NCBI GenBank assembly: GCA_018814875.1
Contig: JAHIYH010000045.1
Location: forward strand, 13,316-77,315
Source of the DNA: Patescibacteria group bacterium
Lineage (GTDB): Bacteria; Patescibacteriota; Gracilibacteria; Peribacterales; Peribacteraceae
DNA length: 64,000 nt
Direction: 5' to 3'
Part shown: one piece after another, positions 6,965 through 49,697 of the stretch
How the letters are laid out: each line of letters begins with the position of its first letter
Numbering within the stretch: the stretch's first letter is position 1
Program-made: the position numbers and the translations under genes
The notes under the pieces: model-generated
What the model saw: only the letters and a program-made list of their open reading frames with translations
Told to the model about the DNA's origin: nothing
Databases searched by the model: none

Positions 6965-7006
6965 ATGCCCCTTCGTCCCGCTGCGGGACTCAGGGCAAGC
7001 CTCTAA
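6965..7006 (+). promoter_or_regulatory. 13-codon uORF (MPLRPAAGLRASL) created by a GC-rich CCTTCG element just upstream of rpsL
   Basis: atgcc start duplicated (tttatATGCC at 6962-6969 vs tttATGCC at 7019-7026); element ccttcgtcccgctgcgggactcagggcaagcc 6970..7001 lies between. Confidence 0.4.
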
Positions 7007-7021
7007 TCGTCAGTAATATTT

Positions 7022-7441
7022 ATGCCAACTGTTAACCAATTAATCCGTCGGCCACGCAAGAAAAAGCGCCAGAAGAGCAAAGCTCCTGCGCTACAGTACA
7101 CGTGGAATGCGCTCAAGATGCGTCAGGTACCTCTAAGAAAGGGTACTCCATTTAAGCGTGGGGTGTGTATAAAGGTAACAACCATGACCCCAAAGAAGCC
7201 AAACTCCGCTCTGCGAAAGATTGCTCGTGTGCGTCTTACCAATGGGCATGAAGTAAAGGCCTACATCATGGGAGAAGGACACAACCTCCAAGAGCACAGC
7301 GTTGTAATGGTTCGTGGAGGACGCGTAAAAGACCTTCCAGGTGTACGTTACCACATCGTTCGTGGAGTCCTAGATACCGAAGGTGTCCAGAATCGCAAAC
7401 AAGGAAGAAGTCGATACGGTGCTAAGAAGCCTAAATCTTAA
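7022..7441 (+). CDS. rpsL: 30S ribosomal protein S12
   Basis: MPTVNQLIR...[10 protein letters not shown] motif, length 139 aa, str-operon context. Confidence 0.98.
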
Positions 7442-47908: not shown

Positions 47909-49255
47909 TCAGTCTTCATCCACATCCACAAACTGATCTCGCATCGTGTATGTGTCGAGTTTGTCTTTTCCGCCGAGAAGTTCGATTACTTTTGGAATAG
48001 CTTCTTCGAACGGTATCTCTTTTTGTTTTCCTGCCGCCATATCTTTCAAAATAATCGTGCCACCTTTTACTTCCATCTTACCAAGCAAGAGCGTGTAGCG
48101 TGCATCAAATTTATCTGCCAAGCGCATCTGACTCTTCAGACTTGCTTCGCCGAGTGCTCCCAATGTGTGTACACCCTTGTCACGAAGTTCTGAGATGAGT
48201 TTTAGGCATGTCTTCTTTGCCTCCGGTCCTAATTGTGCCACAAAGACATCAACTTGGTCTTTGTGTGGAACTTTTATACCAGCTTGTTTCATGTGCCAGA
48301 CTATGCGCTCGAGCCCACCAGCGAAGCCAATGCCAGGCGTAGGTTGTCCTCCAAAGAGTTCTATTAGACCGTCATAGCGTCCACCTCCGCCAACCGCATT
48401 CTGGGAGCCTGTTTCGTTGTCTAGGAATTCAAACACGGTTTGTGTGTAGTAATCTAGTCCTCGTACGAGTGTTGGATTTTCAACGTACTTAATATCCAAT
48501 TCATCCAGATATTCCAGAACTGTTTTGTGATATTCCTTACTCTCATCGTCCAAGAACTGATCCATAGCTGGTGCGTTCTTAAGAAGAATTTGAGTATCCT
48601 CTTCCTTGGAATCCAAAAGTCGAAGAGGATTAGTTTGAAGTCTTGCCTGATCAAGTTCGGGCAGATTACGTTCTTTTCCAATGAAGAAGTCTTTTAGAGC
48701 TTCGGTGTATGCTGCGCGATTCTCCGCGGTCCCAATGTTATTAATATTTAGTTCTAAGCGGTCTAGAATCTTGATGTCACCAAAGATCTTGGCTAGCACA
48801 AGAATTAGCTGCGCATCAATACTTGGATCCTTGAGCCCGATCACTTCCATATTGAATTGATGGAACTGACGGTAGCGTCCTTTCTGTGGGCGATCATGCC
48901 TAAAGCACTGACCAATGGCATATAGTTCCACTGGTTGTGGGAGTTGTTGCATCCCGTGTTCTATGAAGGATCGGCAAATACCGGCAGTAAATTCCGGGCG
49001 TAATGCAAATTTAGCTTCCTCATCTTCCTTTTGCTTGGAGGTAACCAGAAATAGCTCCTTTTCCACGATATCCGTGTGTTCGCCAATTCCACGTTCAAAG
49101 ATTGCTTTGTTCTCGAACATTGGTGTATCAATCCGCTTGTAACCAGCTTGCCTAGCTCTATGACGCACAGCTTTCTTTATATACGTCATGTATTGATGAT
49201 CCTCTGGGAGGACATCGTGTGTGCCTTTCGGTGTTCGGAATAATGGTTGTGACAT
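47909..49255 (-). CDS. hisS: histidine--tRNA ligase
   Basis: class II motifs (FRHDRPQKGRYRQF, GGGGRYDGL), 448 aa. Confidence 0.95.
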   Translation of the reverse strand: MSQPLFRTPKGTHDVLPEDHQYMTYIKKAVRHRARQAGYKRIDTPMFENKAIFERGIGEHTDIVEKELFLVTSKQKEDEEAKFALRPEFTAGICRSFIEHGMQQLPQPVELYAIGQCFRHDRPQKGRYRQFHQFNMEVIGLKDPSIDAQLILVLAKIFGDIKILDRLELNINNIGTAENRAAYTEALKDFFIGKERNLPELDQARLQTNPLRLLDSKEEDTQILLKNAPAMDQFLDDESKEYHKTVLEYLDELDIKYVENPTLVRGLDYYTQTVFEFLDNETGSQNAVGGGGRYDGLIELFGGQPTPGIGFAGGLERIVWHMKQAGIKVPHKDQVDVFVAQLGPEAKKTCLKLISELRDKGVHTLGALGEASLKSQMRLADKFDARYTLLLGKMEVKGGTIILKDMAAGKQKEIPFEEAIPKVIELLGGKDKLDTYTMRDQFVDVDED

Positions 49256-49356
49256 ATGCGGTATCTAGAAGTATAGCAGCTTAGGAGATCCCTCCGTAGC
49301 CTACGCGATAGCGGAGCGAAGGGGGATCGGTGTTCGGAATAAAGGTTGTGACATAT
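49229..49356 (-). repeat. 29-nt direct duplication of the hisS start region bracketing a 70-nt GC-rich insert
   Basis: cggtgttcggaataa(t/a)ggttgtgacatat at 49229..49257 and 49328..49356; insert contains gatccctccgtagcctacgcgatagcggagcgaagggggatc; upstream copy opens the uORF MSQPLFRTPIPLRSAIA* (49301..49354). Confidence 0.75.
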
Positions 49357-49465
49357 AAAGAGGTATTCGATTGTTGAGTGTACCGAAGTTTGGCTATCTA
49401 GCCAAGGGGTATTAAAAAGAGGAATAGTTCGCTGGCTTAGGCCTTTTCCTTTATTATTGGTATTA

Positions 49466-49522
49466 CATGGCGAGAGTAGCTTCAGCCTTCGTCCCGCTGA
49501 GGCGGGACTACGGCCGACAAGC
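49466..49522 (+). repeat. duplicated tRNA-His 5' fragment followed by GC-rich CCTTCG element
   Basis: catggcgagagtagct identical to 49561..49576; followed by cagccttcgtcccgctgaggcgggactacggccgacaagc. Confidence 0.75.
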
Positions 49523-49563
49523 AGTTGGTTCATGTTCATTCTTCAATCATCGTTGCCTATCAT

Positions 49564-49641
49564 GGCGAGAGTAGCTCAGTTGGTTAGAGCGTCCGGTTGT
49601 GGTCCGGAAGGTCGAGGGTTCAAAACCCTTCTCTCGCCCCA
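49564..49641 (+). tRNA. tRNA-His (GUG) with genome-encoded G-1 and CCA
   Basis: hand-folded cloverleaf: acceptor gcgagag/ctctcgc, extra 5' G opposite C73, D arm gctc/gagc, anticodon stem tccgg/ccgga with loop ttGTGgt, T arm gaggg-ttcaaaa-ccctt, 3' CCA. Confidence 0.9.
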
Positions 49642-49697
49642 GATTAAATATAAACACCCCCAAATGACTTTAATCACTTGGGGGCGTCTTTGAATAT

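Follow-up and report, generated by a model that had tools for sequence, protein, structure and literature searches.

Organization of the tRNA-His locus

The DNA analyzed here, referred to as the window, is a stretch of 64,000 nucleotides (nt) from a Patescibacteria group bacterium (assembly GCA_018814875.1, contig JAHIYH010000045.1, positions 13,316 to 77,315). Our subject is its tRNA-His gene, the 5' end of which is present twice with a GC-rich hairpin element between the copies. The source genome, G000, is a Peribacteria assembly of 1.42 Mb in 70 contigs with a G+C content of 43%; the genomes compared are metagenome assemblies throughout. ARAGORN identified tRNA-His(GTG) as the sole tRNA of the window, with an encoded G-1 and an encoded CCA. 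The working gene lies on the plus strand at 49564..49641 (G-1 at 49564, body 49565-49641; Rfam RF00005, 66.6 bits). It is followed by a terminator-like hairpin (49652..49689, inverted repeat I3), and no 3' tRNA fragment was found after it at this locus.

A repeat search revealed that CATGGCGAGAGTAGCT, a 16-nt direct repeat, occurs in exactly two copies, at 49466-49481 and 49561-49576. The chance of an exact repeat of this length inside 100 nt is approximately 1e-8. The downstream copy consists of CAT at 49561-49563 and the first 13 nt of the working tRNA-His counted from G-1. The upstream copy (plus strand, exact repeat D3) is a displaced old 5' end made up of CAT, G-1 and positions 1-12; its match with the intact gene thus reaches 3 nt to the left of G-1. 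Between the copies lie 79 nt without an open reading frame (ORF), which are divided into three parts. The first is a 40-nt GC-rich hairpin element, element E, with the sequence TCAGCCTTCGTCCCGCTGAGGCGGGACTACGGCCGACAAG (49482..49521, plus strand, inverted repeat I2). The second is the 9-nt rest of the old tRNA-His copy, CAGTTGGTT (49522..49530, plus strand), which represents D-loop positions 13-21 and is identical at 9/9 positions to 49577-49585. The third is spacer S, a T/C-rich stretch of 30 nt directly before the working gene (49531..49560, plus strand) that is single copy in the genome. The upstream fragment therefore spans tRNA-His positions -1 to 21, with the hairpin element sitting between 12 and 13. 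Spacer S is probably the proximal promoter or leader of the working tRNA-His; a scan of it for the sigma-70 consensus returned no promoter.

These observations bear on a preliminary description of the window, which had proposed that an older tRNA copy was split and decayed. The duplicated start at 49466 and 49561 and the GC-rich hairpin that opens the interval were both confirmed, while the interval itself measures 79 nt and not 75. The continuation of the D-loop after the element, described as weak, is real and is in fact exact over 9 nt. Neither ARAGORN nor Rfam scored the displaced 5' end as a tRNA, leaving tRNA-His(GTG) as the single intact tRNA at the locus, as had been anticipated.

A displaced start at hisS

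On the other side of the intergenic region the same arrangement is found in the opposite orientation. The working hisS, encoding a putative histidyl-tRNA synthetase, is an ORF of 448 amino acids (aa) on the minus strand (47909..49257), and its matches in congeners start at the ATG. The 30-nt block TCGGTGTTCGGAATAATGGTTGTGACATAT at 49228-49257, comprising the first 28 nt of the gene and 2 nt upstream, recurs with one mismatch at 49327-49356 (repeat D1, 29/30 identical). The latter copy is a displaced old hisS start on the minus strand, containing 2 nt, the ATG and 25 nt of coding sequence. The two starts are separated by a GC-rich hairpin element (49289..49326, reading TCCCCCTTCGCTCCGCTATCGCGTAGGCTACGGAGGGA on the minus strand) and a 31-nt spacer (49258..49288, minus strand) that is single copy in the genome. 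The old hisS start and the old tRNA-His start share one intergenic flank, flank U (49357..49465), from which hisS leaves on the minus strand and tRNA-His on the plus strand.

The closest relative of G000, G001, has the same order at hisS, namely flank, old start, GC element, spacer and new start, with a shorter and different GC-rich piece at the same place. Its spacer is ~88% identical to that of G000, and the G000 spacer shows no similarity to the hisS upstream region of the congener G005. In G005 and G004 the site is empty, with flank U directly at the ATG. The old and new starts differ by 4 nt in G001 and by 1 nt in G000, and all of these differences are synonymous. This hints that the two starts were once functional alleles, or that the upstream ORF is translated, either of which would fit synonymous-only differences better than a decaying copy does. 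The upstream ORF that the old start opens (49327-49290, minus strand) reads MSQPLFRTPIPLRSAIA followed by a stop, and ends inside the GC-rich element. The first nine residues of its G001 counterpart are the same except for residue 2, which is Ala in place of Ser, the nucleotide changes being otherwise synonymous.

The layout had been described as common to tRNA-His, hisS and rpsL. It holds for hisS, where repeat, element and spacer are all present. At rpsL only ATGCC (6965-6969 and 7022-7026) and loosely similar AT-rich bases flank the element at ~6967-6999, which does not go beyond chance.

Native flank and foreign spacer

To which copy the upstream region belongs is indicated by comparison with congeners. 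The last 25 nt of flank U align with the region upstream of tRNA-His in G005 (p<0.002), and the aligned motif, TTTTCCTTTA[T/A]TAT, lies 25 nt from G-1 in both genomes. On the hisS side, the end of flank U aligns with the sequence upstream of hisS in G001 and G005. Because the fragment adjoins this native upstream flank, it occupies the native position, and on the sequence comparison it appears to be the original 5' end of tRNA-His, with the working copy restarting behind the insert. The proposal that an older tRNA copy was split is supported by the same alignment.

Spacer S, in contrast to the flank, does not align with the native upstream region of G005. It resembles the tRNA-His spacers of G130 (p=0.004) and G022 (p<0.002), which belong to other genera and themselves carry tRNA-His fragments, and by eye also that of G065. 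At tRNA-His the spacer bears no relation to the flank before the fragment, and the same was seen at eight loci of other genomes. Spacer S was not copied from the local flank and is foreign here.

Recurrence at other tRNA genes of the genome

Each of the 48 tRNA genes of G000 was compared with its own flanks, with an upstream flank of 450 nt and sense matches of at least 10 nt. At 13 of the 48 the gene's own 5' end is copied upstream, so that the genome-wide search suggested in the preliminary description did yield further cases. In all 12 tRNAs with a sense match in the upstream flank, the copy starts at position 1-3 and is 10-35 nt long; these are Arg-TCG, Gln-CTG, Thr-CGT, Ile-GAT (two units), Arg-GCG, Pro-TGG, Gly-GCC, Lys-TTT, Cys, Ala-CGC, Asn (three units) and His. 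The 13th case is tRNA-Tyr, which has an old and almost complete copy 924 nt upstream (C43:114824-115747; contigs of G000 are denoted C); hairpins have been inserted separately into the D-loop and the anticodon loop of this copy. Between this old copy and the working tRNA-Tyr gene is a 95-aa ORF with no assigned function.

On the downstream side there are mirror-image copies of 3' ends, with CCA as their exact end, at Trp, Gln-CTG, Arg-GCG (two units) and Cys, and at a greater distance at Leu-CAA and Leu-GAG. All short downstream sense matches are 3' ends that stop at the last base of CCA. A longer one at Ile-GAT (positions 17-77) also ends at CCA and belongs to a second, hairpin-disrupted tRNA-Ile copy. 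Among the 48 genes we found neither 3' ends upstream of their own tRNA nor isolated 5' fragments downstream. The outer edges of the copies coincide with the mature tRNA ends on both sides. The inner breaks fall in loops: at 12/13 or 13/14, the edge of the D-loop, in most 5' copies; at 17-20 of the D-loop for Asn, Cys and Arg-GCG; in the anticodon loop for Arg-TCG; and in the T-loop for the 3' copies. Of the idea that one mechanism acts at the 5' ends of genes or transcripts, the recurrence stands, but the restriction to 5' ends does not, given the 3'-end copies at CCA.

Longer intervals separate a tRNA from a copy of its own 3' end at tRNA-Met (~4 kb) and tRNA-Thr(GGT) (~2.4 kb). After tRNA-Arg(GCG), two tandem 84-nt units (C24:14160-14331) each contain diverged positions ~24-60 followed by the exact last 18 nt with CCA. 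Elsewhere on the same contig (C24:9048-9303) are two adjoining odd tRNA calls, a tRNA-Ile with anticodon AAT and a tRNA of undetermined anticodon, which may be fragments or cargo of a mobile element. One short multi-copy unit, with two occurrences of GCAAGATGAGCCTGAA 35 nt apart and the same spacer between them each time, breaks the assembly and is carried by the contig ends C1:10837, C20:13392, C24:29287, C62:8818, C69:8799 and C60:77; a variant of the repeat, ACAGAATGAGCATGAA, is found on C6 and C68.

The GC-rich hairpin element family

Element E at tRNA-His has the frame NCC-TTCG-hairpin-CTAC-GGN...CAAG. Its 23-nt core had no chance match in 100 shuffles of the window, and the genome contains at least 10 close paralogues of the element. 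On C28 the fragment of tRNA-Pro(TGG) has the same element at the corresponding place of its D-loop. With the slightly wider frame NCC-TTCG-hairpin-CT(A/C)N-GGN...CAAG, a hairpin is present at nearly all tRNA breaks. Many tRNAs also have a like hairpin directly after CCA, in the form CCA-TTCG...CTCATGGCAAG-CCA. More than 50 copies in the genome match a strict pattern and 352 GC-rich islands hold the motif; flanking direct repeats of at least 11 nt are ~12 times commoner at these islands than among mismatched flank pairs.

Rfam returned no match for element E, tRNA-His being the only Rfam match, and the outer stem of the element showed no clean covariation, since the simple five-pair reading has many central mismatches or bulges. 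We considered whether hairpin and spacer together form a repeated mobile unit and rejected this, as 11 of 11 spacers tested are single copy and only chance 12-13-mers recur.

Two RAYT-like genes, two reverse transcriptase genes and 3-4 tyrosine recombinase genes were identified in G000. None is near the tRNA-His locus, and the tyrosine recombinase genes are on other contigs. The RAYT-like genes encode HUH (Y1) transposases (C3:2050-2589 and C41:13790-14236), each with its own palindrome family. These palindromes, of the GCAGCACGCGTCCCGCGTGCGG and GCAGCGGTTTTCGAACCGCTGC types, flank the two Y1_Tnp genes and are unlike the CCTTCG element, and RAYT was accordingly rejected as the driver.

GIY-YIG minigenes at tRNA genes

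Eight genes of G000 encode proteins of 79-86 aa with a Pfam GIY-YIG match. For one of the products, a search showed a relationship to the UPF0213 structures 1zg2 and 1ywl, and NCBIfam gave only weak matches to group I intron endonucleases. Four of the eight lie within ~230 nt downstream of tRNA genes (Arg-TCG, Ile-GAT, Leu-CAA and Leu-GAG), and the probability that at least four would be that near by chance is P ~7e-7. A fifth is inside the 4-kb interval between tRNA-Met and its 3'-end copy. Hairpins precede all eight minigenes, those after tRNA genes having a TTCG...CTCATGG frame. The Leu-CAA and Leu-GAG minigenes are then followed by a 3' tRNA fragment and the Ile-GAT minigene by the disrupted second tRNA-Ile copy, such that in G000 a GIY-YIG gene stands between a partial and an intact copy at tRNA-Leu(CAA), tRNA-Leu(GAG) and tRNA-Ile(GAT).

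The region C20:2858-3260 contains, in order, tRNA-Ile(GAT), an 84-aa GIY-YIG gene and the second tRNA-Ile copy. In that copy the palindrome TCCGCCTAGGCGGA stands in place of the D-arm GCTCAGC, and the 84-aa ORF ends inside the copy. Between tRNA-Leu(CAA) and its GIY-YIG gene (C36:6914-7140) are an initial hairpin and then three ~62-nt tandem repeats, each ending in a hairpin of the ...GGGGCTCCTCATGGCAAGCC type.

The tRNA-His gene itself has a GIY-YIG gene between partial and intact copy in another genome, G160. The order there is 5' fragment, hairpin, spacer, tRNA-His, hairpins, GIY-YIG gene, 3' fragment and a flank with CAGTTGAAT. In G001, CAGTTGAAT directly follows the uninterrupted tRNA-His, and in G067, which has a hairpin-only version, it follows the 3' fragment. 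Because the CAGTTGAAT flank follows it, the distal 3' fragment is taken to be the native end, as on the 5' side.

Distribution and turnover across the family

The motif at the junction of D-arm and hairpin, TAGCTCCNNCCTTCG, was detected in 65 of 121 genomes of the family, representing 53 of 84 genera, with ~130 matches as opposed to ~15 for a reversed control. Of the 33 junctions that were read, 23 have the 13-mer a second time, 60-135 nt farther downstream, where an intact tRNA begins with it; the match mostly extends 0-3 nt to the left of +1. After the element, fragments in other genomes resume with the D-loop variant of their own tRNA (AGTTGG, AGCTGG, AATTGG or AGTGGT). Since the layout recurs in more than 100 independent assemblies, an assembly artefact is unlikely. 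Beyond the family, a search for the junction motif in all species genomes was dominated by chance matches from GC-rich genomes; when 80 loci of the all-species scan were read, the layout was seen only at one Peribacteria and one Patescibacteria locus. A search of metagenome contigs for empty or filled alleles gave no match to the junction of flank and fragment, in a set from which records of G000 itself may have been missing.

In the congener G007, 5' fragments are present at 10 of the 43 tRNA genes read, largely at other tRNAs than in G000. At tRNA-His, fragments occur at ~9 of the 25 family loci read and five congeners are without one, from which we conclude that gain and loss are fast.

A second layout consists of a fragment of positions 1-21, a GTCGAG-hairpin-CGAGCA module, an A-rich stretch, an antisense D-arm copy and ~31 nt with a CATAATAGA box. 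It was found in G007 at three Ala and two Pro genes (L049, L058, L059, L065 and L066), at tRNA-His in G022 (L003), G016 (L012) and G066, and at tRNA-Pro(TGG) in G000. The antisense D-arm is an exact copy of that tRNA's own D-arm and lies ~45 nt upstream of the working tRNA (GTGCTCTAGCCAAC is an example). At four of the five G007 loci its TAGCCA part is located 17 nt before a conserved CATAAT box, and this part may double as a -35 element. The antisense D-arm and the sense D-arm of the fragment could also fold into a three-way junction.

A proposed relic of a tRNA-lodging cassette

Taking these data together, we lean toward the explanation that the insert at tRNA-His is a nuclease-less relic of a selfish cassette that lodges in tRNA genes. 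We class the locus only as a relic because no small GIY-YIG gene is found between its partial and intact copies. It does have two other traits of such a cassette, namely a partial end copy beside an intact gene with the outer edge at the mature end, and a loop break (12/13, at the D-loop edge) plugged by a GC-rich hairpin, the latter being seen at 12 other tRNAs of G000 as well. According to this explanation, ~95 nt of extra DNA would have come to lie inside the D-loop of tRNA-His and would have stranded the original 5' end (G-1 to 21). The extra DNA would comprise the GC-rich hairpin, the unique spacer and a fresh copy of positions -1 to 12 that restores the gene, the fresh copy being counted to position 21 if the hairpin element is taken apart; the unique spacer would now act as the proximal upstream region of tRNA-His. 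More generally, a family of small insertions would lodge in the D-loop, anticodon loop and T-loop of Peribacteria tRNA genes, always keeping an intact tRNA by carrying or creating a replacement for the end that is cut off. Complete members would combine hairpins of the same frame with a gene for a GIY-YIG nuclease of the UPF0213 type, 80-86 aa long. The edges would be sharp at +1, at CCA and at the start codon because the replacement end came on DNA with flanks unrelated to the resident ones, and no RNA step is needed.

We infer that the hairpin relics on the 5' side and the nuclease-bearing cassettes on the 3' side are parts of one system. From the position of its gene, the GIY-YIG nuclease may cut tRNA-gene DNA and so spread the insert by repair or homologous recombination. 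As the insert has tRNA sequence on both sides, occupied alleles could also spread to empty ones by ordinary recombination via the flanking tRNA sequence, and we suppose that empty alleles are converted through this homology. Recombination between the repeats would conversely remove the insert and give back a simple gene.

Several observations weigh against the cassette explanation. The hairpin element is also present at hundreds of sites unconnected with tRNA genes, and at hisS, and it may be an independent mobile element that merely piles up in dead DNA. There is no nuclease gene at or near the tRNA-His locus of G000. In G000 the GIY-YIG genes are all 3' of tRNAs and most relics 5', and a GIY-YIG gene is present at 2-3 of the 13 tRNAs with a 5' fragment versus 2 of the 35 without one, a difference that is not significant. 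Lastly, the fragment tracks lineage-specific changes of the tRNA; at position 7 both copies have A in G000 and C in G130, G022 and G016, and such tracking needs gene conversion or repeated re-insertion.

A more far-reaching version, which we regard as improbable, is that the minimal 80-aa GIY-YIG proteins and the hairpins constitute a new mobile system that senses the loops of cloverleaf-folded, single-stranded tRNA-gene DNA, installs hairpin modules in them and survives because it always delivers a replacement end together with a promoter. In a bolder variant still, the stranded fragment and hairpin, transcribed from the native promoter, may serve as a guide-like RNA or DNA that targets matching empty tRNA genes for cutting or recombination; such a role would explain why fragments stay identical to their own tRNA. 

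If the cassette explanation holds, tRNA genes would be a main habitat of a very small selfish element in these ultra-small bacteria, with the host spared because the element brings a spare gene end. It would then account for much of the non-coding DNA that this streamlined 1.4-Mb genome has, for the stranded ends and new promoters at about one quarter of the tRNA genes, and for the fragments met by tRNA-gene finders. The minigenes would be candidate structure- or hairpin-directed nucleases of only 80 residues, and the layout at hisS would mean that essential protein genes can be struck and rescued likewise.

Alternative explanations

The strongest competitor, which we consider possible but rather unlikely, invokes two unrelated processes. 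Partial copies would result from occasional recombination, illegitimate or anchored by homology, with incoming DNA of related strains, only the tRNA being conserved between donor and recipient, hence the identity from +1 to CCA; a separate REP-like palindrome with a preference for the loops of folded tRNA-gene DNA would survive only in the redundant, dead copies, and the GIY-YIG genes would be bystanders. The foreign spacer and the edges at gene ends on both sides agree with this, as do the redundant full copies with loop palindromes (the second tRNA-Ile and the old tRNA-Tyr), the genome-wide dispersal of the element family and the synonymous differences at hisS, which are those of two functional alleles. 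However, the hairpin is at the same place in nearly every fragment and the fragments end within positions 19-27, which points to one coupled event. The spacers are moreover short (10-70 nt), which is not expected from random donor ends, and the GIY-YIG genes are strongly tied to tRNA genes.

The layout could also be a selected regulatory architecture in which the hairpin insulates against or terminates read-through, the spacer is a dedicated promoter and the 5' copy tunes processing or translation, a role taken at hisS by the start-mimicking upstream ORF. Many spacers have -10-like boxes 8-20 nt from +1 (TATAAT or CATAATAGA), the tRNA-His spacer is conserved across genera, the old hisS start retains the peptide MxQPLFRTP, and fragments follow changes in their own tRNA. 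We nevertheless find a regulatory origin unlikely, for the layout is patchy within the genus: the five congeners have no tRNA-His fragment, and G000 and G007 share few affected tRNAs. The existence of tandem arrays and nested copies and the failure of the consensus scan to find a promoter at tRNA-His also speak against it.

Identity that runs from a crossover point to the tRNA end is the textbook signature of integration into a tRNA gene, and elements using the 5' part of the tRNA as attachment site could have entered the D-arm and later been deleted to a stub. The 3-4 tyrosine recombinase genes and the long intervals at tRNA-Met and tRNA-Thr(GGT) are in keeping with such scars. We think this origin very unlikely, since each of at least 13 tRNAs would call for a specificity of its own, the stubs are all 40-130 nt long and carry one hairpin family, and no integrase gene adjoins any stub, the tRNA-His repeats having only 79 nt between them. 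The 5'-side orientation is an exception for known integrases and the rule in G000.

The preliminary description had named, as one speculative route, template switching by a reverse transcriptase at RNA 5' ends, pointing to the reverse transcriptase of a diversity-generating retroelement (DGR) in the same genome; the enzyme would copy a tRNA or mRNA as far as the 5' end, change template there and so duplicate that end. The left edge of the duplicated block is indeed at the mature 5' end or within 1-3 nt of it at more than 30 loci, and the genome has two reverse transcriptase genes. We now hold this route to be highly unlikely: the 3' copies ending at CCA, seen at no fewer than six tRNAs, cannot stem from an RNA 5' end, the spacer does not derive from a tRNA and is not repeated, and the fragment rather than the working copy is at the native flank. 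The hisS block, which starts at the start codon, would correspond to an RNA end only if the mRNA were leaderless, and nothing links the DGR reverse transcriptase to the loci. Finally, the tRNA 5' region might simply have been duplicated in tandem on the spot, the extra copy then decaying and receiving a hairpin by chance. The arrays (Ile x2, Asn x3, and His x2 in G022) might speak for such a local tandem duplication, but it is effectively excluded because it predicts a spacer equal to the end of the upstream flank, while spacer S is single copy, unlike flank U and akin to the spacers of other genera, and this although the tRNA-derived parts are 100% identical.

Comparison with known systems

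Literature searches found no published description of this layout, and several known systems share parts of it. Single-domain GIY-YIG proteins linked to a high-copy hairpin repeat are found both here and among the Ssn nucleases, which are tied to the NTS/SRM hairpin repeat in hundreds of copies; SRM repeats flank the Ssn genes, and the enzymes cut single-stranded DNA beside the hairpin (Chenal et al. 2025, PMC11893778). The parts of that report available to us do not link tRNA-gene fragments to Ssn/SRM (PMC11893778). The Ssn nucleases are of the cd10448 clade; the one protein searched here matches UPF0213 structures. Membership of our hairpin in the SRM family was rejected, as the published SRM pattern gave 5 matches versus 1-6 in shuffled genomes and the tRNA-His element does not fit it.

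The hairpin element also resembles REP sequences, being a short, GC-rich, imperfect palindrome in hundreds of copies, mostly between genes, with a conserved CTAC/GTAG-like tetranucleotide by the stem (TTCG-hairpin-CTAC or CTCA). It differs from REP/RAYT systems in that the RAYT-like genes here are flanked by other palindromes, and REPs are not known to occupy loops of tRNA genes together with a duplication that restores the gene.

Integrative elements in tRNA genes leave attL/attR repeats of the tRNA 3' end, and 178-bp repeats follow E. coli tyrT. With the former the loci described here share a partial copy of a tRNA end beside an intact gene and identity that stops at the tRNA end. With the latter they share tandem units, those after tRNA-Arg(GCG), that each end in a tRNA 3' terminus. 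Unlike tRNA-gene integrative elements, the inserts are 40-130 nt long without an integrase, the 5' side is dominant, and one hairpin family is spread over many tRNAs.

The proposed cassette also has parallels in free-standing GIY-YIG homing endonuclease genes such as segB of phage T4, whose product SegB is encoded in a tRNA gene cluster, and in the mobile ORF elements known from fungal mitochondria (Allomyces and Glomus; atp6, atp9 and cox2), which supply the host gene with a replacement end while its native end persists beside it as a dead remnant. As in these systems, a small GIY-YIG gene is found beside or inside an essential gene. What sets the Peribacteria loci apart from both is that the targets are bacterial chromosomal tRNA genes broken in their loops, that the protein consists of an 80-aa UPF0213 domain alone and lacks a DNA-binding domain, and that GC-rich hairpins are part of the unit, most copies of which, the one at tRNA-His included, are without the nuclease gene.

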